Shown here one piece after another: positions 4,338-29,112 of a DNA stretch of 64,000 bases (positions are counted from its first letter, which is position 1; each line of letters opens with the position of its first letter). The DNA lies in the NCBI GenBank assembly GCA_944372345.1, contig CALVYT010000008.1:10690-74689 (forward strand). The letters run 5' to 3'. This stretch comes from an uncultured Clostridia bacterium (lineage in GTDB: Bacteria; Bacillota; Clostridia; Christensenellales; Pumilibacteraceae). The notes below the pieces were generated by a model. That model worked only from the letters and a program-made list of their open reading frames with translations. It did no database searches and had not been told where the DNA came from. Made by a program: the position numbers and the translations under genes.

Positions 4338-6032
4338 TCATACCGAAAGCGCGGCGTACAGTCTGTCGGCGTCTGCGGTCGTTCTGCCGCGGACGATAAA
4401 GAACAGCAGCACGAACACCGCGGCGAGCGCGGCGGACGCTATCGTGAGCCCCCAGCCGCCCAGCCCCGCGAAATACAGCCCAAGCCCAAGCCCGAGGATA
4501 ACTCCTCCCGCTCCGAACGCGGCGAGTATACCGAGCAGCGTAGGGATCACCGTGGCGGGATTGCTCTTGACGGCGTCGCGCGGGGTGACCCAATCGAGGC
4601 GCGGCTTTTTCAGATCGCGGCGCAGATAGAACTCCGTAAAGCACAGCACGCCAGCGGCGAGCATAACGAGGGTGCTTATTATCGCGGCGACGTCCACCGT
4701 TTTGAGCGCGACCGCTCCCGAAACAGCCATTCCCGCCACGCTCACGGCACCGGACACGAGGGGCGGCAGCACGGATACCACGCGCTTTGCGTCGAGCTGG
4801 ACGGTATACGGCACGGGAATGAGTTTGCTGTATGCGAACGTGACGCCCTCGCGGGTCACCGCCGTCAGCGCGGTGAAGTTCAGCGCGCCCGTCATCATCA
4901 AAGCCATCATTGCAGCTATCGCCCACATAACGACGAACATAAGCCCGGATATGCCCGCTTCCTCCACGCCTTCGCCGTTGCCCATTATCATCATAACGAC
5001 GCACATCGCGGGAGAGAGGACCACGCCCGCGAGGCATTGGAACGCAAACGAGGAATTGCGTATGAGCATCCTCGTTTCCTTTTTCACGAGAGCGCGCAGC
5101 ACTCCGGAACGCTCGTAACGCCCCGCTTTGTTCCTGCTCCGCGGCGGATTTTCCGACTGTCGCATGACCGCGCGGCGGTACATAAGCAACGCGAGCGGGA
5201 CGAGAGCCGCCGAAAGCGCGGCGACCGTCCCGAGAAACACGATGAGGTTTATTGCCGCCGAGAGGGCGGGAGCTTCTGCGAACCCGCCGCCGTTTGTGCC
5301 GAAGCACGCAAGGCAGTAGATCGGATATATAACATACATTGAGCGGCGCACCGCGGCGCGCAGCGTTTCGACGGCGGCGCCGATATCCTCGGCCCCGCCC
5401 GACGCCGGGGCGCGGCCGCCAAGATTGACGACTACTATATACACCGTCATAAACGCGGCGAACAGCACGAGCAGGAGCACGCTCGCGACCGCGCCGCGGT
5501 TACGGAAGAACCCGGCTATGAACGTCAGCGGCACGGCGATAAGCGCGCCGAGCAACAGCGCGCAAAGCGGCACGAGCGCGACCGCGATGAGCGTCATTAT
5601 ATAAAACGCCGCGCCCTGCGCCGTCGCTATGCCGAGCACTATCGCGCCCGGGAAAGCGAGCACCGCTCCGACGGCGGCTTCCTCGACATATATGACCGTC
5701 AGCTTCGCCGCGAACACCGTACCCGGTCTGACCGGGAGGCTCATTAAAAACTCGTTGTCGCGGGAGAAATACATATACGAAAACACCGCGACCGTGCCGA
5801 ACACGAGCGTGAGCATAAAATCCGCGGCCAGAAGCAGCGCGGCGATCTCCGTCGTGAGATCATAATCCCTAACCGCGGCGCCGAGAAATCCCAGCGCGAC
5901 GGCTATGCACGCCGAAAGTATGGCGGCGAGCACGATGAAGCCGACGAGTGCGGACGGCGAATTTTTCGCGCCCGCGCGCTTTCTGAATGTCATGCTAAGC
6001 AGCGTCCGCGTTATGACTTTCCACCCGTACAT
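4338..6032 (-). CDS. ABC-2/ABC-exporter-type polytopic membrane permease
   Basis: 564 aa, many hydrophobic spans. It starts 1 nt after the stop of the upstream ABC ATPase. Confidence 0.75.
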   Translation of the reverse strand: MYGWKVITRTLLSMTFRKRAGAKNSPSALVGFIVLAAILSACIAVALGFLGAAVRDYDLTTEIAALLLAADFMLTLVFGTVAVFSYMYFSRDNEFLMSLPVRPGTVFAAKLTVIYVEEAAVGAVLAFPGAIVLGIATAQGAAFYIMTLIAVALVPLCALLLGALIAVPLTFIAGFFRNRGAVASVLLLVLFAAFMTVYIVVVNLGGRAPASGGAEDIGAAVETLRAAVRRSMYVIYPIYCLACFGTNGGGFAEAPALSAAINLIVFLGTVAALSAALVPLALLMYRRAVMRQSENPPRSRNKAGRYERSGVLRALVKKETRMLIRNSSFAFQCLAGVVLSPAMCVVMMIMGNGEGVEEAGISGLMFVVMWAIAAMMALMMTGALNFTALTAVTREGVTFAYSKLIPVPYTVQLDAKRVVSVLPPLVSGAVSVAGMAVSGAVALKTVDVAAIISTLVMLAAGVLCFTEFYLRRDLKKPRLDWVTPRDAVKSNPATVIPTLLGILAAFGAGGVILGLGLGLYFAGLGGWGLTIASAALAAVFVLLFFIVRGRTTADADRLYAALSV

Positions 6033-6033
6033 A

Positions 6034-6771
6034 TCAGTCGCTCCCGTTTCCCGCGACGGAGAGGAATATGTCTTCGAGCGACTCGTCGCCCTTTGCGGCT
6101 TTGATATCGTCGAGATCGCCCGCGACGAGCAGTCTGCCCTTGCTTATTATGCCTATGCGGTCGCATATCCGCTCCGCCATATCAAGGACGTGCGTCGAGA
6201 AAAACACGACGTTTCCCCTGTCCGCGTGGACGCGCATTATGTCCTTGAATTCACGCACCGACTGCGGGTCCAGCCCCACCATCGGCTCGTCGAGAACGAG
6301 CACTTTCGGGTCGTGGACGAGCGCGCCGACTATGGCTATCTTCTGCTTCATCCCGTGGCTGTACGTCCCTATCTGGTTGTCGTATGCGCCGCCGAGCGAA
6401 AAGCGCGAAACGAGTTCGTCGGCGCGCGCCCGACGCTCTTCGACGGATACGCCGTATACGTCCGCCATAAAGTCGACGAACTCCCTGCCCGTCAGCTTTT
6501 CAAACAGCACTCCGCTGTCCGTGACGTAACCTATGTTCTTCTTCGCGCCCGCGGGGTCCCGTTCGACGTCCGCGCCGCATACCGAAATACTGCCTTCGTC
6601 CGCGGACAGTATCCCCGTCATCATCTTGATGGTCGTCGTCTTCCCCGCCCCGTTTGGACCGAGAAACCCGAATATCTCGCCGCCCGAAAGGGTCAGCGAC
6701 AGTCCGTCCACCGCCTTGACGGGGCTTTTCGCGTACGTTTTGGATACGCGGTCAAATACGACTTCGTTCAA
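6034..6771 (-). CDS. ABC transporter ATP-binding protein
   Basis: GPNGAGKTTT (Walker A), signature-like YSHGMKQK, LVLDEP (Walker B). The start is set at the TTG at 6771, preceded by AGGAGG. The Arg-rich N-terminal extension in the track looks non-coding. Confidence 0.88.
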   Translation of the reverse strand: MNEVVFDRVSKTYAKSPVKAVDGLSLTLSGGEIFGFLGPNGAGKTTTIKMMTGILSADEGSISVCGADVERDPAGAKKNIGYVTDSGVLFEKLTGREFVDFMADVYGVSVEERRARADELVSRFSLGGAYDNQIGTYSHGMKQKIAIVGALVHDPKVLVLDEPMVGLDPQSVREFKDIMRVHADRGNVVFFSTHVLDMAERICDRIGIISKGRLLVAGDLDDIKAAKGDESLEDIFLSVAGNGSD

Positions 6772-10523: not shown

Positions 10524-10600
<77 letters not shown>

Positions 10601-13303: not shown

Positions 13304-13508
13304 TATACCATATCCGCGCGAAAATTGCAATAGGGTCGGCGAAATCTTTATCAGATTTTAATGTTCGGATCAAGCCGGGCTGAAAGGCGCTTGTCTTGTC
13401 CGCGCCGCCACCGGACGGAAATAACGCTCGTAAGGTACGGACCGCCGGTCGTCGGCGTCCGCAATAAGCGCGCGACGTCCGGGCGGAAACGACCTTGCAA
13501 TGTCCGCT

Positions 13509-14435
13509 TCACCGCGGGTCGGAAACGACCTTGGCTACGAAAAATCCCTCGTAATATTCGTCCGGAGCAACGAGCGTTCCGCACTCCGACGGCAGTACGG
13601 CGGCGCGCTCGGGCGCGAGCCCCGTCTCCGCGACGGAAAACCCCGAACGCGGCAACGCGGACAGCAGAGCCTCCTCGTTCTCGCACGGCAGCAGCGAGCA
13701 CGTCGAATAGACGAGAACGCCGCCGGGCGCGAGCAACGCGAACGCGCGGGAGAGCAGCGCGCGCTGTTTTTTCATACACGCGGCGAGCAGTTTTTCGGAA
13801 AAATTCCCGCCGTCCGTTTCGGACAGCGTGCCGCTCCCCGAACAGGGCGCGTCGAGCAGGATGCGGTCGAACTTCATTGCGGGGTCGAGCGCGGACGCGT
13901 CCGTGACGAGCACGCTCACGCGGCGCGCGCCGAGCAGGGCGAGATTGTGTTTCAGCCGCTCCGCGCGCACGGGGTTTATCTCGCACGCCGTTATATACGC
14001 CCCGCCGCCCGTCAGCGCGGCGATCTGCGACGTTTTTCCGCCGGGAGCCGCGCACATATCGAGGACGTTCTCCCCCGCCGACGCGCCGAGAGCGAGCGGC
14101 GGCAGCATGGACGACAGGCTCTGAACGTATATCTCCCCGTTCGCATACATTTCCGACGAACGGAGAGCGGCGTAGTCGCCGCCGGCGACGGCATAGCCTC
14201 CGCCTATGCGCTCGAAAGCGATCCCCGTATTTTGCAGCGCGCTCTCGACGCGCTCCGCCGTACTTTTGAGGGTATTGACGCGGAACGTCGTTTTACGGCG
14301 CGAGCAAAGCCCTCGGATGACGTTTTCCGCTTCCGCTCCGTACGCTCCGCTCAGCCGCGCGGCAAGTTGTGCGTTTATCTCCATACGTCCATTATAACGG
14401 CGCGCGGCGGCTTTTGTCAAGAAAAAGCGCGCCAC
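13509..14435 (-). CDS. NOL1/NOP2/Sun-family RNA cytosine-C5 methyltransferase (RsmB/RsmF-like)
   Basis: VLDMCAAPGGKTSQIA (SAM motif I), DRILLDAPCSGSG and STCSL are the catalytic Cys motifs. The start is uncertain: GTG at 14435 or ATG at 14384. Confidence 0.85.
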   Translation of the reverse strand: MARFFLTKAAARRYNGRMEINAQLAARLSGAYGAEAENVIRGLCSRRKTTFRVNTLKSTAERVESALQNTGIAFERIGGGYAVAGGDYAALRSSEMYANGEIYVQSLSSMLPPLALGASAGENVLDMCAAPGGKTSQIAALTGGGAYITACEINPVRAERLKHNLALLGARRVSVLVTDASALDPAMKFDRILLDAPCSGSGTLSETDGGNFSEKLLAACMKKQRALLSRAFALLAPGGVLVYSTCSLLPCENEEALLSALPRSGFSVAETGLAPERAAVLPSECGTLVAPDEYYEGFFVAKVVSDPR

Positions 14436-21748: not shown

Positions 21749-24700
21749 ATGAAGAAAATGACTATCGACGGAAATACCGCCGCGTCGCACGTCGCGTATG
21801 CGTTTTCCGAAGTAGCCGCCATCTATCCCATCACGCCCTCCTCGCCTATGGCGGAGGTCGCGGACGAGTGGTCGGCGAAGGGTAGGCTCAACATGTTCGG
21901 GCAGCCGCTCCGCATTGCGGAAATGGAGTCCGAAGGCGGCGCTGCGGGCGCCGTTCACGGATCGCTCTCCGCAGGCGCTCTGACCACGACTTACACCGCG
22001 TCGCAGGGTCTGCTCCTGATGATCCCCAATATGTATAAGATCGCGGGCGAACTGCTCCCCTGCGTGTTCCACGTTTCGGCACGCGCGCTGGCGGCGTCCT
22101 CCCTCAATATATTCGGAGACCATGCGGACGTTATGGCATGCCGTCAGACGGGATTTGCGATGCTCTGCTCGGGCAGCGTTCAGGAAGTTATGGACCTCGC
22201 GCTCGTCGCTCACCTCTCCACGCTCAAAAGCAAGGTGCCGTTCCTGCACTTCTTCGACGGCTTCCGCACGAGCCACGAGGTCAGCAAGATAGACGTCATA
22301 GACTACGACGAAATGAAGTCGCTCGTCTGCGAGGACGAGATCCGCGACTTCAAGAGCCGCGCGCTCAATCCCGAGCACCCCATTCAGAAGGGCACGGCGC
22401 AGAACCCCGATATCTACTTCCAGACGCGCGAAGCGGTGAATAAGTATTACGACGCCGTTCCCGCGATAGTCAAAGAGAAAATGGAAGCCGTGAGCAAGCT
22501 CACCGGCAGAAAATACGAACTCTATCAGTACTACGGCGCGCCCGACGCGGACCGCGTCATCGTGCTTATGGGCAGCGGCGCGGAGACCGTGCAGGAGACA
22601 ATCGACTACCTCGCGGCGAAGGGCGAAAAGGTCGGCGCGATCAAGGTCCGCCTGTTCCGTCCGTTCTCCGTCAAGGATTTCGTATCCGCGATCCCCGCAA
22701 GCTGCAAGAAGATCGCCGTGCTCGACCGCACGAAAGAGCCGGGCGCTCTCGGCGAGCCGCTGTATCTCGACGTGTGCGCCGCGCTTGCCGAAGAAAAGGT
22801 GCGCGGAGTCAAAGTCGTCGGCGGACGCTACGGCATGGGCAGCAAGGAATTCACGCCGTCCATGGTCAACGCGATCTATAAAGAGCTCAAAAAGACCAAT
22901 CCCAAGAACCACTTCACGATCGGTATAGACGACGACGTGACCAAGACGTCCCTGCCCTATCCCGAATTCGTCAACGCTTCCCCGTCCGGCACGGTGCGCT
23001 GCAAGTTCTACGGCTTCGGCGGCGACGGCACGGTAGGCGCGAACAAGAACAGCATCAAGATCATCGGCGATCATACCGACAAGTACGCGCAGGGCTACTT
23101 CGAGTACGACTCGAAAAAGTCGGGCGGCTTCACGCTCTCCCACCTGCGTTTCGGCGATCAGCCCATACATTCCGAATACCTCATCGACGAGGCGGATTTC
23201 GTGGCGTGCCACAAGCCCGCGTATGTGACGATGTACGATATGCTCTCCTCGCTCAAAGAAGGCGGCACGTTCCTGCTCAACTGCAAATGGACGGACGCGG
23301 AACTGGAAAAGGAACTTCCCGTTTCGATGAAGCGCGCTCTCGCGAAGAAGCATATCAAAATGTACGCGATCGACGCTCTCGCCACCGCGCAGAAAGCGGG
23401 CAGCCCCAAGAGCCAGAATATGGTTCTGCAGGCGGCGTTCTTCAAGATCGCGAACATCATCCCCTACGAGCAGGCGGAAGTGTATATGAAAGCCGCCGTC
23501 GAAAAGACTTACGGCAAGAAAGGTCCCGAGGTCGTCAAAGCCAACTGCGACGCGATCGATATGGCGATAAGCGAGCTCCGCGAAGTGGAGATCCCCGAAT
23601 GGTGGGCTACCACCAAAGTGGGCGCGAAAGCGGAAATTCCCGCAGACGCGAAAGCGGACAAGTATTACACCGAATTCATCAGCGTCTGCAACGCACAGGA
23701 AGGCAATAAACTGCCCGTTTCCAAAGTCAGCGCGGACGGCTCCGTTCCCACCGGAACGACCAAATATGAAAAGCGCGGCGCCGCGCCCGTCGTACCCGTC
23801 TGGGACGTCACGAAGTGCATACAGTGCAACCAGTGCTCCTACGTCTGCCCTCACGCAGCCATCCGCCCCGTGCTGATGACGGAGGAAGAGGCGGCGAAAG
23901 CACCCAAAGCGTTCGTTTCCAAACCCGCAAACGGCTTCCCCGGAATGAAATTCAGAATGCAAGTTTCCCCGCTCGACTGCACGGGCTGCTCGTCCTGCGC
24001 GAACGTCTGCCCCGCTCCCGGCAAGGCGCTGAAGATGACGGACATCGAAGTCGCCACCAAAGCGGAAAAGGCGAACTGGGAATACTCGCAGACGGTGCCC
24101 GTCAAGAACGTCGCTCCCACCAACCCGAAGAACAGCCAGTTCAGTAAGCCGCTGTTCGAGTTCTCGGGCGCGTGCGCGGGCTGCGGCGAAACGCCGTACG
24201 TCAAGCTCGTCACGCAGCTGTTCGGCGACCGTATGATCATCGCGAACGCTACGGGTTGCTCGTCCATTTACGGCGGTTCCGCGCCCGTCTGCCCTTACAC
24301 GAAGAACGACAAGGGCGAAGGTCCCGCGTGGGCTAACTCGCTGTTCGAGGATAACGCGCAGTTCGGCTACGGAATGTTCCTCGCTTACAAGGCGCGCCGC
24401 GAAAAGCTCGCCGCGGATATGCACAGAGCCATCGAACTGGGCGCGAACGACACGCTGAAAACCGCGTTCGAGGAATGGGGCGCGAATATGAAAAACGTCG
24501 AGATCACCCGCAAGTGCGCGGATACGATCAAGGCGGCTCTGCCCGAAGCCATCAAAGCGGCGAGCGGAGAGCTTAAATCGGTGCTCGAAACGATATACGC
24601 CGACAGCGACTGCATCGTCAAGAAATCCTTCTGGATCATCGGCGGCGACGGCTGGGCATACGATATCGGTTACGGCGGACTCGACCACGTGCTCGCGCAG

Positions 24701-25279
24701 GACGAGGATGTCAACGTGCTCGTGCTCGACACCGAGGTGTACTCCAACACGGGCGGTCAGGCGTCCAAGGCGTCCCCTACCGGCTCCGTCGCGAAGTTCG
24801 CCGCAGCCGGCAAGCGCACGAAGAAAAAGGATCTCGGCATGATGGCTATGAGCTACGGTTATGTGTACGTCGCGCAGTGCGCGATGGGCGCGAGCCAGCC
24901 TCAGCTGCTCAAAGCGCTGACCGAAGCCGAGAAGTACGACGGACCTTCCCTCGTCATCTGCTACTCTACCTGCATCAACCACGGCATTCGTATGGATATG
25001 GGTCAGACGGAGCAGAAGAAGGCGGTCGAAGCCGGATACTGGCAGCTCTACCGCTATAACCCCGACAGCGGATTCACCCTCGACTCCAAAGAGCCCACGG
25101 CGTCCTATCAGGACTTCCTTATGGGCGAAACGAGATATAAGTCGCTCAAAGCGTCCAAACCCGAAGTCGCGGGCGTCCTGTTCGAGAAAGCGGAGAAAGA
25201 CGCGAAGGCACGTCTGGAATCCTATAAGATCAAGGCGGAAGAGACCAAGGAAGCCAAAGCCGCCGAAGAGAGCAAATAA
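21749..25279 (+). CDS. nifJ: pyruvate:ferredoxin (flavodoxin) oxidoreductase, single-chain
   Basis: 1176 aa. MTIDGNTAASHVAYAFSEVAAIYPITPSSPMAE, two 4Fe-4S motifs (CIQCNQCSYVCPH, CTGCSSCANVCP), and the TPP motif GGDGWAYDIG. Confidence 0.97.
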   Translation: MKKMTIDGNTAASHVAYAFSEVAAIYPITPSSPMAEVADEWSAKGRLNMFGQPLRIAEMESEGGAAGAVHGSLSAGALTTTYTASQGLLLMIPNMYKIAGELLPCVFHVSARALAASSLNIFGDHADVMACRQTGFAMLCSGSVQEVMDLALVAHLSTLKSKVPFLHFFDGFRTSHEVSKIDVIDYDEMKSLVCEDEIRDFKSRALNPEHPIQKGTAQNPDIYFQTREAVNKYYDAVPAIVKEKMEAVSKLTGRKYELYQYYGAPDADRVIVLMGSGAETVQETIDYLAAKGEKVGAIKVRLFRPFSVKDFVSAIPASCKKIAVLDRTKEPGALGEPLYLDVCAALAEEKVRGVKVVGGRYGMGSKEFTPSMVNAIYKELKKTNPKNHFTIGIDDDVTKTSLPYPEFVNASPSGTVRCKFYGFGGDGTVGANKNSIKIIGDHTDKYAQGYFEYDSKKSGGFTLSHLRFGDQPIHSEYLIDEADFVACHKPAYVTMYDMLSSLKEGGTFLLNCKWTDAELEKELPVSMKRALAKKHIKMYAIDALATAQKAGSPKSQNMVLQAAFFKIANIIPYEQAEVYMKAAVEKTYGKKGPEVVKANCDAIDMAISELREVEIPEWWATTKVGAKAEIPADAKADKYYTEFISVCNAQEGNKLPVSKVSADGSVPTGTTKYEKRGAAPVVPVWDVTKCIQCNQCSYVCPHAAIRPVLMTEEEAAKAPKAFVSKPANGFPGMKFRMQVSPLDCTGCSSCANVCPAPGKALKMTDIEVATKAEKANWEYSQTVPVKNVAPTNPKNSQFSKPLFEFSGACAGCGETPYVKLVTQLFGDRMIIANATGCSSIYGGSAPVCPYTKNDKGEGPAWANSLFEDNAQFGYGMFLAYKARREKLAADMHRAIELGANDTLKTAFEEWGANMKNVEITRKCADTIKAALPEAIKAASGELKSVLETIYADSDCIVKKSFWIIGGDGWAYDIGYGGLDHVLAQDEDVNVLVLDTEVYSNTGGQASKASPTGSVAKFAAAGKRTKKKDLGMMAMSYGYVYVAQCAMGASQPQLLKALTEAEKYDGPSLVICYSTCINHGIRMDMGQTEQKKAVEAGYWQLYRYNPDSGFTLDSKEPTASYQDFLMGETRYKSLKASKPEVAGVLFEKAEKDAKARLESYKIKAEETKEAKAAEESK

Positions 25280-25323
25280 TATAACGCTCATAAACGAAAA
25301 GTAAGCGCGTCACGCGCGAACGA

Positions 25324-25361
25324 ATCCCCGCTCCCGGGTCATCCGGGAGCGGGGATTTTTC
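25324..25361 (+). terminator. intrinsic terminator of PFOR
   Basis: ATCCCCGCTCCCGG-GTCAT-CCGGGAGCGGGGAT followed by TTTTT. Confidence 0.85.
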
Positions 25362-25373
25362 ATATTCGGCTTC

Positions 25374-26095
25374 CCTGCGGTCCTGGCGGACGGCGAAATG
25401 ACAAAACCGGTGATTGAACAGGCTTTGCCTGTACCGCAGACGCTCACTTCGCCCCACCGCAAGGCGGTCCTGGCGGACGGTGAAATAACGAAACCGGCGA
25501 TTAAACAGGCTTTGCCTGTACCGCAGACGCTCACTTCGCCCCGCCGCCAGGCGGGTCCTTGCGGACGGCGGGGTGAACAGACTGACGATGAAACAAGCAT
25601 TGTCCGTACCGCAAAAACTCACACTTCGCCCCACCGCAAGGTGGCCCCGCCGCCAGGCGGGTCCTGGCGGAGTCCTTGCGGACGGCAAATGACAGACTGA
25701 CGATGAAACAAGCATTGTCCGTACCGCAAAAGGCTCACACTTCGCCCCGCTGCCAGGCGGTCCTGGCGGACGGCAAATGACAGACTGACGATGAAACAAG
25801 CATTGTCCGTACCGCAAAAACTCACACTTCGCCCCACCGCAAGGGTCCTTGCGGACGGCGGGGTGAACGGACTGACGATTGAACAAGCCTTGTCCGTACC
25901 GCAAAAGCTTACACTTCGCTCCGCCGCCAGGCGGCCCCGCCGCCAGACGGTCCTTGCGGACGGCGGGGTGAACGGACTGACGATGAAACAAGCCTTGTCC
26001 GTACCGCAAAAACTCACACTTCGCTCCGCCGCCAGGCGGCCCCACCGCAAGGTGGCTCCGCCGCCAGGCGGTCCCGACGGAGAGCAGTCCTGACA
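25374..26095. repeat. tandem array of 7 units of 85-121 bp, non-coding, hairpin-rich
   Basis: Units start near 25381, 25468, 25556, 25673, 25761, 25846 and 25951. See the finding for details. Confidence 0.9.
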
Positions 26096-26168
26096 AACGG
26101 TAAATGAAATGCAAGCGCCGTAACAAAAGCGCGCGGCAGGCGCGCTGACGGCTTATGTGAAATTTTCT

Positions 26169-26229
26169 ATCACATTCTTTCACAATGTGATAATATACGG
26201 TTGACTTGCGGCGGAGGATATGATATAAT
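26169..26229 (+). promoter_or_regulatory. promoter of the MarR-DegV operon with an upstream palindrome
   Basis: ATCACATT-N7-AATGTGAT (26169-26191), then TTGACT (26201-26206), 17 nt, TATAAT (26224-26229). Confidence 0.55.
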
Positions 26230-26355
26230 GCCGATAGTTAAAAATTTTTAGATAAAAAGTTTTAATGTTTCTGCGCGACGCTCTGCGTCTGCCGGAGGTA
26301 AACACAAGCCGCGCGGGCGAAAACGGGCAAAGAGATACGAACGGAGGATGACTGA

Positions 26356-26862
26356 ATGGATAAGGAGAGCACGGAAAGAAGCATAGAGCGGGATTTTGAA
26401 GTGATATACAACGAGTTCCGTCTGCGGCTGTACAAGCACATTTTCGGGATCATCGGCGAAAAAGCGGGCTCGCTGTCGGCAACGGAGTATTTCAGCGCGG
26501 AGGTCGTGTATCTGCTCGGCAATCCGACGGTGACGGAATTCGCGGAATATCTGAACATCTCCTCCCCCAATGCGGCGTACAAGGTGCGTTCGCTCGTCGA
26601 GAAAGGCTATCTCGAAAAAACGCAGACGGATGACAAACGCAGCTACCGCCTGACCGTGACGGAGAAATTCGCGAGGTATTACCATAAAGAGGACAGTTAC
26701 GGTCGTTATATCACGCGTATGCTCGAACAGCGGCTGACGGACGAGGAACTCGAATACGTCGGCAAAATATTCAGACGTTATATCGAACAGATAAACATAG
26801 AAAAAGCCAAGGAAAAAGCGACCGGGACAGAAACGACCGGACTTGAAGAAAAAGAAAAGTAA
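26356..26862 (+). CDS. MarR-family transcriptional regulator
   Basis: LSATEYFSAEVVYLLGNPTVTEFAEYLNISSPNAAYKVRSLVEKGYLEKTQTDDKRSYRLTVT is a MarR winged HTH. Confidence 0.8.
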   Translation: MDKESTERSIERDFEVIYNEFRLRLYKHIFGIIGEKAGSLSATEYFSAEVVYLLGNPTVTEFAEYLNISSPNAAYKVRSLVEKGYLEKTQTDDKRSYRLTVTEKFARYYHKEDSYGRYITRMLEQRLTDEELEYVGKIFRRYIEQINIEKAKEKATGTETTGLEEKEK

Positions 26863-26876
26863 CAGGAGTAAAGGCA

Positions 26877-27713
26877 ATGATCAGAATAATCACGGACTCG
26901 TCCGCCAACCTTTCGGCGGAAGAAGCAAAGAGAATGAATATCACGGTACTGCCCTTCCCCGTCATATTCGGGAGCAGGACGTACCTCGACGGCAAGGATC
27001 TGTCCACGGCGGAGTTTTACGAAAAACTCGCGACCGATCCCGACCACCCGCATACGTCGCAGATCAACGTGACGGAATTCGAGGAACTGTTCTCATCGCT
27101 CGGCAAGGACGAGGAAACGCTCGTCATACTGCTCTCGTCCGCGCTGTCGGGAACGGTGGACAGCGCGCGCAAAGCCAAGGAGAACCTCGGCTGCGATAAC
27201 GTACATATTTACGACTCTCTCGGCGCGACGATAATGATAAAGATCCTCGTTTACGCAGCATACGAAAACCGCGACAAGAGCGCGGCGGAAGTATCGGCGC
27301 TGCTCGACGACATACGCTCGCGCATGGAACTGTACGCGATCGTGGATACTCTCGATTATCTGCAAAAGGGCGGTCGACTCAAAAAGAGCGTTGCGGCCAT
27401 AGGCAAAATATTCCGCATCAAGCCCATAGTAACCGTTTCCCGCGAAGGTACGGTCGAATTGTGCGACAAGGCGATAGGCACCGCTCTCGCGCTTAAAAAA
27501 GTCGCAAAACGCGTCGCCGCCTCCCCCGCAGATCCCGATTATCCGATAATTTATCTGTATTCGGCGGAAAATTCGCTCTGCCGCCGCCTGACGGAAGCGA
27601 TTACGCCCGACAATGCCGAAGAAGCGCTTGCCGAAGCGGTAAACCTCTGCCCCGTCATCGGCGTGCATATAGGTCCGGGCGCCGCCGGCGTCTGCTTTAT
27701 CAGAAAGAAATAA
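26877..27713 (+). CDS. DegV-family fatty-acid-binding protein
   Basis: MIRIITDSSANLS...ILLSSALSGT...DTLDYLQKGGR are DegV hallmarks. Confidence 0.9.
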   Translation: MIRIITDSSANLSAEEAKRMNITVLPFPVIFGSRTYLDGKDLSTAEFYEKLATDPDHPHTSQINVTEFEELFSSLGKDEETLVILLSSALSGTVDSARKAKENLGCDNVHIYDSLGATIMIKILVYAAYENRDKSAAEVSALLDDIRSRMELYAIVDTLDYLQKGGRLKKSVAAIGKIFRIKPIVTVSREGTVELCDKAIGTALALKKVAKRVAASPADPDYPIIYLYSAENSLCRRLTEAITPDNAEEALAEAVNLCPVIGVHIGPGAAGVCFIRKK

Positions 27714-27834: not shown

Positions 27835-28725
27835 TCAATAGGATATTCGGAAACGGTCGAGGACTCGTTTGAATTTATCCTGCGCGGCGAGGCAGGTATC
27901 GCGCAGATACCCTCGCTCGTTTTCCCATTCGTGCAGACCGCGGTAATAGAACATTTTCAGATCCTCGCCGATAATGAACGGCACGATGCCGCACCTTAAA
28001 CACTCTTTGAATAATATCAGCCGTCCGACGCGCCCGTTCCCGTCCTGAAACGGGTGTATACGCTCGAAACGGTAATGAAAATCGAGAAGGTCGTCCAAAG
28101 TCTTGTCCTTGCCAGAGCCGTATGCCGCGAGCAGCCGTTTCATCTCGCCCGCTACCTCTTCCGGCTGCGCCGTTTCCCTGCCGCCGACCGTATTGGGCAG
28201 CCTCTTATATTCCCCCACGGCGAACCACTCGGCGCGCGAGTCCGTCGTGCCGTTTTTCAGCGTACCGTGAAGCCGCCCGATGAACGCTTCGGAAAGCGGC
28301 TTGCCCGCCTCGTCGACCGCCATATCGATACAGCGGAAATGGTTAGCCGTTTCCACGACATCGTCCACTCTGACGGCTCCGCTCCCGACGCCTATCGTAT
28401 TCGTTTCAAAAATATAACGCGTCTGTTCGTGCGTCAGGCGGCTCCCCTCGATATGGTTGGAGTTATAGGTCAGTTCGATCTGCACATAATGATATATCCC
28501 GCCCGAAAGCCCGCACGCCTTTTCCCTTTTCAATATCTCGGGCAGCGTCGCGGGAACGTCGGTCTTTGCGCCGATACGCGCGGGTCTTTCCGCATCCTCG
28601 GGGATATTCCACGTCTTTCCCGTCAGAAAAGCGCCGTCCACCCTCCCCGACGCGCAGTAATTTCTCACGCTGCGCTCAGAAAGCCCCCACTTTTTCGCCG
28701 TTTCCGCAACAGACAGATATTTCAT
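27835..28725 (-). CDS. Fic-family protein (class II, auto-inhibited) with an N-terminal HTH
   Basis: Fic motif HPFQDGNGRVGR, inhibitory-helix motif SNHIEG ([ST]xxxE[GN]), and an N-terminal MKYLSVAETAKKWGLSERSVRNY HTH. The ATG at 28725 follows GGAGGG. Confidence 0.88.
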   Translation of the reverse strand: MKYLSVAETAKKWGLSERSVRNYCASGRVDGAFLTGKTWNIPEDAERPARIGAKTDVPATLPEILKREKACGLSGGIYHYVQIELTYNSNHIEGSRLTHEQTRYIFETNTIGVGSGAVRVDDVVETANHFRCIDMAVDEAGKPLSEAFIGRLHGTLKNGTTDSRAEWFAVGEYKRLPNTVGGRETAQPEEVAGEMKRLLAAYGSGKDKTLDDLLDFHYRFERIHPFQDGNGRVGRLILFKECLRCGIVPFIIGEDLKMFYYRGLHEWENERGYLRDTCLAAQDKFKRVLDRFRISY

Positions 28726-28853
28726 TCCGCTTGCCCTCCGCTTTGAGTATACCTTATTATCGGCAAAAATGCAAGCTAAATGCGGTGACAAAATCGCGAA
28801 TTATTGCCGATAGCGGCAATAAGAACGCATTCGGCGCGAGATCCGCCCGGCAT

Positions 28854-28890: not shown

Positions 28891-28930
28891 CGTGTTTTCA
28901 AATATCGATATTGTATTTTCCGCCACACGG

Positions 28931-29112
28931 GCATACACAACGCCGAGGCGTGAACGCCCGCTCGGCACACGTTATCCGCGCGGTCATACGCAACGCCGAG
29001 GCGGGAACGCCCGCTCGGTATCCGTTCTCCGCGCGGTCATACGCAACGCCGCACAGCGTTTCGGGTGCGATCCGCCGCACACTTCTCCTCGCTTATCCGT
29101 TCTCCGCGCGTT
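28931..29112. repeat. tandem 53-54 bp repeat, about 2.5 copies
   Basis: CATAC(A/G)CAACGCCGAGGCG(T/G)GAACGCCCGCTCGG...CCGCGCGGT at 28931 and 28985, with a partial copy from 29038. Confidence 0.75.

Follow-up and report, generated by a model that had tools for sequence, protein, structure and literature searches.

The window, by which we mean the whole 64-kb stretch of DNA that was analysed, stems from an uncultured Clostridia lineage whose closest named relative is Candidatus Protoclostridium. At the locus considered here it carries the gene for pyruvate:ferredoxin oxidoreductase (PFOR; 21749..25279, + strand, 1176 aa), which was assigned from its open reading frame, the name given in the source and the Pfam domains POR_N, PFOR_II, POR, EKR, Fer4 and TPP_enzyme_C of the identical protein. 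The gene is followed by an intrinsic terminator on the + strand (25322..25363), consisting of a 17-bp stem at 25322-25358 with 11 G-C pairs and a subsequent T5 run, and 17 nt past this T run begins an array of tandem repeats, followed in turn by the promoter of a MarR-like gene. This downstream gene encodes a MarR-family regulator of 168 aa (26356..26862, + strand) and is succeeded by a DegV gene (26877-27713), the neighbouring genes at the locus being PFOR, MarR, DegV and ValS. The regulatory region of the MarR gene (26168..26229, + strand) lies outside the array, is conserved in relatives and comprises an AT-rich palindrome, TATCACATT-N7-AATGTGATA (26168-26192), and a promoter-like site, TTGACT-17-TATAAT (26201-26229), ~130 nt past the array end. 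At the right edge of the array a terminator-like hairpin is found on the - strand (26128..26146), which would keep antisense transcripts from entering the array; neither one conspecific strain (L002) nor sister species conserve it.

Organization of the array and its palindromes

Tandem Repeats Finder detects tandem repeats at 25377-26081, the periods being 87 and 105 nt (scores 312-387), and anchoring on GTCCTKGCGGAC places seven head-to-tail units at 25380-26070 of the window, which measure 87, 88, 117, 88, 85, 105 and 121 nt in array order and have a G+C content of ~60%. This bears out the seven tandem units proposed by an earlier, sequence-only reading of the same DNA, the starts of which were off by one base. 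Each unit opens with a conserved start, GTCC-TKGC-GGAC-GG, which is a half-palindrome, followed by a central segment of ~40 nt that occurs in a few alternative versions, a conserved GTACC block and a C-rich segment, after which come one to three 14-nt palindromes of the form CCRCC-GCMA-GGYGG. Little or no variation is seen in GTCCTKGCGGACGG, the 14-nt unit start, or in the GTACC block, which are preserved in 25-26 of the 26 units aligned. In the window, GTCCTKGCGGAC is matched 12 times at <=1 mismatch (0.58 expected) and CCRCCGCMAGGYGG 22 times at <=2 mismatches (6.3 expected), and all exact copies of both within the 64 kb fall inside the array.

Unit 1 (25380..25466) ends in a junction hairpin, CCACC-GCAA-GGCGG, that contains an A.C mismatch, and is followed by unit 2 (25467..25554) and by unit 3 (25555..25671), which has two junction sub-hairpins, at 25631 and 25647, and additionally, at 25661-25671, the 11-nt GTCCTGGCGGA, which duplicates part of the unit start. 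After unit 4 (25672..25759), the junction of unit 5 (25760..25844) is shortened to CCACCGCAAGG and forms, together with the start of unit 6, the palindrome CCGCAAGG-GT-CCTTGCGG (25837-25854). Unit 6 (25845..25949) contains two sub-hairpins, at 25921 and 25937, and unit 7 (25950..26070) three consecutive ones, at 26026, 26042 and 26058. Unit length had been held to vary almost solely with the copy number of these sub-hairpins, a claim that does not hold, as the 11-nt duplication in unit 3 and indels of 1-3 nt contribute too. The array is bordered by a degenerate tail (26071..26110; GTCCCGACGGAGAGCAGTCCTGACAAACGGTAAATGA) with two decayed unit starts inside, part of which is deleted in L002; its similarity to the unit is weak (p about 0.03-0.3). 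A derivation of the unit from the right flank (26071-26160) was dropped, the alignment not being significant (p 0.03-0.3). The segments between the hairpins are themselves repeated, with 60-98% identity, hence the array lacks the unique spacers between identical repeats that define CRISPR, in agreement with the sequence-only reading.

The array contains ten 14-nt sub-hairpins in the window. Two hairpin forms with preserved pairing had been described, three of them in a row; both forms and the row of three are present, whereas pairing is perfect in just 7 of the 10, the exceptions being CCACC-GCAA-GGCGG at 25454, CCGCT at 25747 and GACGG at 25937. The start hairpin and the junction hairpins have a common 8-nt core, CCGCMAGG, in opposite orientations, which is the most conserved portion of the unit and occurs 17 times in the array, 9 times on the + and 8 times on the - strand, with convergent copies at every unit junction. 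In the other 63 kb of the window the core is found 5 times against 5.0 expected, that is, at chance level. Folded as single-stranded DNA, the junctions are predicted to adopt several alternative hairpins of -11 to -18 kcal/mol, as expected of a substrate for slippage.

Since the pairing within the two forms had been taken as evidence of compensatory hairpin variants, the linkage between arms and loops was tabulated for 39 sub-hairpins from ten loci. The variable arm position is Watson-Crick paired in 33/39 of them, and the loop base is linked to the 5' arm in 31/39 and to the 3' arm in 29/39; among non-parental hairpins with swapped loops, Watson-Crick arms are kept in about 5/11. The loop base has no pairing partner, yet its linkage to the arms is nearly as tight as that between the arms. 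The two forms thus represent two linked sub-repeat haplotypes that have spread through many rounds of copying, with at best one compensatory event, and the claim of compensatory variation is not supported. As a neutral minisatellite, the array would show how linked sub-repeat haplotypes can mimic compensatory RNA evolution, which calls for caution in covariation-based RNA discovery.

Strain variation and phylogenetic distribution

Among short-read metagenome contigs, in which unit copy numbers may be affected by partial mis-assembly, six units are found in L001 (flanks 98.9-99.6% identical to the window with its seven units), eight in L002 (flanks 98.7-99.1% identical) and 1-3 decayed units in L033-L036 (flanks 95-99% identical). 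The module variants of the window recur in L001 and L002 in reshuffled order, and L033-L036 carry other hairpin variants, for example CACCC-TTGC-GGGTG, as well as a lengthened MarR leader with an internal repeat. The PFOR-MarR spacers of the strains differ in length by 146, 15 and 161 nt. Many metagenome contigs encode the exact MarR protein, and most of them are broken at the right array edge or close to it: in 34 of the 36 index blocks with the MarR gene the longest contig is <5 kb, and 7 of the 10 MarR-gene contigs listed start at or near this edge. Such breaks are to be expected, as tandem repeats typically interrupt short-read assemblies.

Short-read assemblies also often get tandem repeats wrong, and the region is spanned by a 317-aa reverse ORF, so that an assembly artefact or a hidden coding repeat was considered. 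The array is, however, present in at least 4 independent assemblies from different samples, as one unit family at one locus. Its unit lengths are not consistently multiples of 3 (modulo 3: 0, 1, 0, 1, 1, 0), the length differences between the strains' spacers break every frame and no Pfam match was obtained for the ORFs that overlap the array, which makes both variants of this explanation extremely unlikely. A coding repeat was rejected on the frame arithmetic and the Pfam result, in line with the earlier view that no repeat protein is conserved.

The array is restricted to one species, and relatives with flanks of 73-89% identity lack it. In the closest other relatives, L024, L025 and L026, which are free of the array, the distance from PFOR to MarR amounts to 181, 302 and 175 nt, and the MarR proteins are 88%, 85% and 67% identical to that of the window, respectively; at the nucleotide level the flanks of L024 and L025, the two compared, show 76-87% identity. 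In L025, 19 of 24 nt match a unit start (p<0.01 by shuffling), which is no more than suggestive of a possible single-copy proto-unit start. Sister species, including one annotated as Candidatus Protoclostridium stercorigallinarum, have unrelated tandem repeats in the PFOR-MarR spacer: in one of them a 190-nt unit is present in 2.2 copies in L019 and in one copy fewer in L015, and another, L029, has 3.4 copies of a 56-nt unit plus a duplication of ~250 nt seen by eye. Long hairpins occur in the sister species as well, directly after the PFOR terminator; these are perfectly palindromic throughout, with a stem sequence that differs between species. The PFOR-MarR locus hence appears prone to expansion, while the sequence itself is not conserved. 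Shared short motifs, for example AAACTYAC and GATRAAACA, had hinted at homology to the repeats of L015; these motifs are, however, arranged in another order and at other distances, a link is not backed by any alignment, and the repeats are regarded as unrelated. In a further species identified through its PFOR (P0070), a different gene follows PFOR, which is uninformative for the array.

An HMM of the unit recovers only the seven array copies in the 64 kb and none elsewhere in the window or in the flanks fetched. A partial look-alike that had been pointed out at 13415-13470 is attributed to chance, as neither the unit HMM (nhmmer, E<=10) nor Rfam gives a match there. Larger collections were scanned with the pattern TCCTKGCGGACGGN{16,24}GATNNAACN{8,14}GTACC, which fits all 23 units then collected (window and L001-L003) and fails on a degenerate unit of the L034 type, so that decayed copies would escape it. 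The scan gave 2 matches among 185,579 GTDB species genomes and 2 in JGI metagenomes, all of them chance matches in coding genes (3 of the 4 represent one Treponema metallo-beta-lactamase-type gene), and 0 in viral contigs. Neither plasmids nor phages yielded a match when searched with the array by BLAST.

Proposed RNA structure and protein binding

The sequence-only reading had preferred to see in the repeats a series of small structured RNAs, or else a sponge that binds protein or RNA, each unit being a folded module. The whole array does fold better than shuffled sequence (z -5.4 on the + and -3.6 on the - strand), which agrees with this proposal, although any palindrome-rich tandem repeat would fold in this manner. 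Taken singly, the units give z-scores from -0.5 to -4.0 and minimum-energy structures that differ from unit to unit, and for two of them the fold is not superior to that of shuffled sequence (z -0.5 and -0.8). A GNRA-type loop, GCAA, is present in one of the hairpin forms. The helix proposed to bracket each unit core, GCGG(A)CGG / CCG(TA)CCGC, is indeed paired in 97.8% of cells of the alignment, in favour of the structured-RNA proposal, yet it contains 0 compensatory pairs, all changes being one-sided and, when read on the + strand, of the type G-C to G-U. RNAalifold predicts a different consensus (-12.3 kcal/mol, covariation term -0.61) that is partly incompatible with the bracket helix, and these two candidate structures are mutually exclusive. 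One pair of the alifold structure covaries (columns 32:50, with A-U, G-C and G-U variants); it is located in the linked haplotype blocks, and 26-36 of 500 shuffles match it. Compensatory support for a structured RNA was not found in this alignment of 26 units, which are recent paralogues and confer low statistical power.

Rfam likewise offers no candidate: the sole match in the whole window at the gathering threshold is a tRNA (10524-10597), and a permissive search of 25000-26500 yielded just sub-threshold hairpin-like noise at the left edge of the array. On neither strand is a promoter-like or terminator-like site found inside the array or its units, and sigma-54 and cre-type sites, assessed by eye, do not fit the unit. 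Together with the lack of conservation past one species, some strains of which have 1-3 decayed units, these results render structured small RNAs or a sponge very improbable. Sponge RNAs of the CsrB/RsmZ type have their own promoter and terminator and expose many GGA motifs in hairpin loops. The loops of the array are GCAA, GCCA or TKGC, its GGA is contained in the stem GCGGAC, which speaks against a CsrA-type sponge in particular, and no site resembling a promoter or terminator accompanies it. Iterons, which had been offered as another option, are direct repeats of ~17-22 bp beside a rep gene and an unwinding region rich in A+T. The units here have 85-121 nt and ~60% G+C, they are flanked by PFOR, MarR, DegV and ValS genes, and plasmid BLAST gave no match, so that the iteron option is not supported.

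A different form of protein binding would involve the junction palindromes, CCGCMAGG-N2-5-CCTKGCGG (18-21 bp), which could be bound by a dimer, for example of MarR, so that the array would act as a titrating or nucleating platform with a spacing of ~87 bp. Some of the palindromes are perfect, for example the one at 25837-25854 and CCGCCAGG-CGGT-CCTGGCGG at 25750-25769; the 8-mer core is the best conserved portion of the unit, and the promoter-like site of a regulator gene follows at ~130 nt. In many junctions, however, the halves mismatch at the K/M position, inserted sub-hairpins move them from 2 to >30 nt apart, and the unit spacing of 85-121 nt is unphased. Moreover, the conserved AT-rich palindrome at 26168-26192, which the array-free relatives also have, is a more plausible operator for MarR, and strains that are free or nearly free of the array carry an identical or >=90% identical MarR protein, which leaves this explanation very doubtful.

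Origin of the array and comparison with known repeat elements

Minisatellites or VNTRs consist of head-to-tail non-coding units of about 10-100+ nt. The array has head-to-tail non-coding units, a strain-variable copy number and no counterpart at the orthologous locus of relatives, and we consider it probable that it is a species-restricted, hypervariable intergenic minisatellite (VNTR) that grows, shrinks and reshuffles by slippage and unequal exchange. A lineage-specific satellite or neutral minisatellite had been listed among the options at the outset, and it fits the strain variability, the one-species range and the lack of covariation. According to the mechanism that we propose, the G+C-rich (quasi)palindromes would fold on single-stranded DNA in replication, and the folded palindromes would promote slipped-strand mispairing, with gains and losses of 16-nt sub-hairpins, 11-nt half-starts and whole units, as well as unequal exchange between units, which would produce a mosaic of module variants, while template switching would maintain the complementary hairpin arms. 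At quasipalindromes, template switching is known to make the arms uniform and to invert the spacer between them, for which RNA selection is not needed (PMC7202029, PMC8604942), and the occurrence of GCAA and TTGC loops in opposite orientations fits such a spacer inversion.

The observations do not need a sequence-specific function, and we infer that the array would at most provide a passive spacer and extra hairpins between PFOR and the MarR promoter. Several features call for care with the minisatellite reading, among them the folding of the whole array, which is better than that of shuffled sequence, the Watson-Crick arms kept by about 5 of 11 non-parental hairpins and the possible mis-assembly behind the copy numbers. 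The invariant or near-invariant unit start and GTACC block could reflect constraint instead of recent homogenisation, an RNA read from the + strand would tolerate the G-C to G-U changes, and the independent, unrelated repeats in one and the same spacer could mean selection, for example for insulation. If the array is a neutral minisatellite, its main value is practical: it provides a marker by which strains of an uncultured Clostridia species from the gut can be distinguished, marks a locus where short-read assemblies break, as on most contigs here, and constitutes a natural case of palindrome-driven repeat dynamics.

The statement that no described element has such an architecture was too strong, as E. 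coli BIME/REP clusters and bacterial VNTRs share most of the features, and it is bacterial intergenic VNTRs and E. coli BIME clusters that the array most resembles. Like the array, the mycobacterial MIRU-VNTR loci are intergenic and made of non-coding units of 40-120 nt arranged head to tail, vary in copy number in closely related strains, require no demonstrated function and can serve as strain markers. MIRUs are a dispersed family with tens of loci, some of which contain short ORFs that link the neighbouring genes. In contrast, the array occupies a single locus in the 64-kb window, contains an unusual wealth of nested palindromes and is repetitive at a second level, that of the 16-nt sub-repeats.

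REPs are imperfect palindromes that measure about 20-40 nt, have a conserved head and are associated with RAYT, a Y1 transposase. The family, with elements of ~35 nt, reaches >100 dispersed copies per genome (PMC2817692), often along with the RAYT transposase. E. coli BIMEs such as REP325 (yjdM/yjdN) are extragenic and directly downstream of a gene, as is the array, and have regularly spaced, G+C-rich palindromes in alternating orientation with linkers between them (PMC2817692), an arrangement also seen in the array, and their copy number and location vary by strain, as the copy number of the array does. The likeness extends to a candidate role as terminator or mRNA stabiliser (PMC2817692; bioRxiv 10.64898/2026.03.23.713779). 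By analogy, the array could be a BIME/REP-like element of the PFOR 3' flank, the hairpins of which would serve as back-up terminators and as barriers to 3' exonucleases upon low-level read-through from PFOR, a highly expressed gene, stabilise the mRNA and shield the MarR promoter. In favour of this analogy, the array lies on the same strand as PFOR and only 17 nt past the T run of its terminator, the hairpin cores alternate in orientation (9 +, 8 -) as REPs do in BIMEs (PMC2817692), the copy number is as strain-variable as in REP clusters, the folding energy lies under that of shuffled controls, the one-sided changes in the bracket helix are G-U compatible on the + strand, hairpins and repeats directly follow the PFOR terminator in sister species too, and REP325 acts as a partial terminator and mRNA stabiliser (bioRxiv 10.64898/2026.03.23.713779). 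However, little read-through is expected past the strong PFOR terminator, the array has no terminator-like site, its palindromes have 12-14 nt compared to ~35 nt in REPs and its linker is a repeated segment of ~60 nt. Furthermore, in place of >100 dispersed REPs per genome (PMC2817692), no second array locus exists in the 64 kb and no match in the other genomes searched, and conspecific strains have 1-3 decayed units and close relatives none. The BIME/REP-like role is accordingly possible, if unlikely; were the array and the unrelated arrays of the sister species to tune PFOR mRNA stability or shield the MarR promoter, 3'-flank regulation of the REP/BIME type would extend to Clostridia.

A broader version of this idea regards the PFOR 3' spacer as a selected 'landing strip', in which species of the clade would have independently built hairpin-rich arrays, from the 87-nt, 190-nt and 56-nt units to the long palindromic hairpin, as a BIME-like insulator or mRNA-stabilising module. 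We regard this as rather improbable; if true, it would amount to an analogue of REP clusters that originated independently in Gram-positive anaerobes.

With the pneumococcal BOX elements (boxA-boxB(n)-boxC) the array, here again read as a minisatellite, has in common a modular, intergenic architecture with one tandem-variable internal module and a predicted stable structure. BOX elements have >100 dispersed copies and defined terminal modules, whereas the array is without terminal modules and no dispersal was detected. The tandem direct repeats of Borgs are rapidly evolving, recent and intergenic, arise independently at different loci and are absent from close relatives (PMC9879509), all of which is reminiscent of the array. 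Borg repeats are, however, near-perfect and pervasive on an archaeal extrachromosomal element, often within genes (PMC9879509), while the array is an imperfect mosaic on a bacterial chromosome, in the 64 kb of which just one further tandem repeat, unrelated to the array, was seen. This second VNTR (28928-29051) has a 53-nt unit, which is present in 2.3 copies here and in one copy in L001, a difference indicating that the genome tolerates such expansions.

Tandem repeats and hairpins of the PFOR-MarR spacer in sister species

In sister species, the spacer between the genes for pyruvate:ferredoxin oxidoreductase (PFOR) and MarR harbours tandem repeats that are unrelated to the focal array. A repeat with a 190-nt unit is present in 2.2 copies in the sister-species locus L019 (1660-2079) and with one copy fewer in L015 (2391-3001), and the MarR protein is identical in these two strains. 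The spacer of a third such locus, L029, carries 3.4 copies of a 56-nt unit (6563-6751). The PFOR-MarR spacer looks like a recurrent expansion hot spot.

Four sister-species loci have a long perfect or near-perfect hairpin with a stem of 17-19 bp located 3' of the PFOR terminator (L015, 2474-2513; L021, ~2013-2052; L029, 6122-6167; L038, ~5828-5873), followed by a C-rich tract and AAACTTAC. The stem varies in sequence among species, with its palindromy being kept, and Rfam returned only sub-threshold matches to generic hairpins (miRNA precursors). This long post-terminator hairpin is absent from the focal species.

The MarR leader and its upstream palindrome

The 5' leader of MarR measures ~360-400 nt in conspecific strains with short arrays (L033, 2150-2500; L034 and L036, ~2090-2500), compared to ~127 nt in the window, and the lengthened leader holds imperfect direct repeats of its own, such as GCGAAGCCGTCRCACTACCGTCRCGAAAGWTTTGTGAACRGTTGCGGCG. 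Directly upstream of the MarR promoter-like site lies an AT-rich palindrome, TATCACATT-N7-AATGTGATA (window 26168-26192), which is likely to represent an autoregulatory operator, because related sequences are found in L015 and in two relatives without the array (L025 and L026).

Further repeats in the window

Two copies of the short direct repeat GGAAACGACCTTG, 36 nt apart (~13486 and ~13522), adjoin the segment at 13415-13470 that the sequence-only reading had regarded as a partial look-alike of the array unit, and lie around predicted ORF starts (13500 and 13509); Rfam gave no match in this repeat region (13480-13540).

A second tandem repeat (28928-29051) comprises 2.3 copies of a 53-nt unit with 90% identity, which includes the hairpin GCCGAGGCGGGAACGCCCGCTCGGC and occurs in single copy in the conspecific contig L001 (~5685-5735). 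Adjoining it is a Fic-domain gene (27835-28791, minus strand), situated between the DegV gene and a gene for a metallo-beta-lactamase-fold protein. The Fic-domain gene, which occupies the same interval in locus L010 and is absent from the conspecific contigs L001-L009, where the interval is a 383-nt spacer, is a strain-variable insertion.
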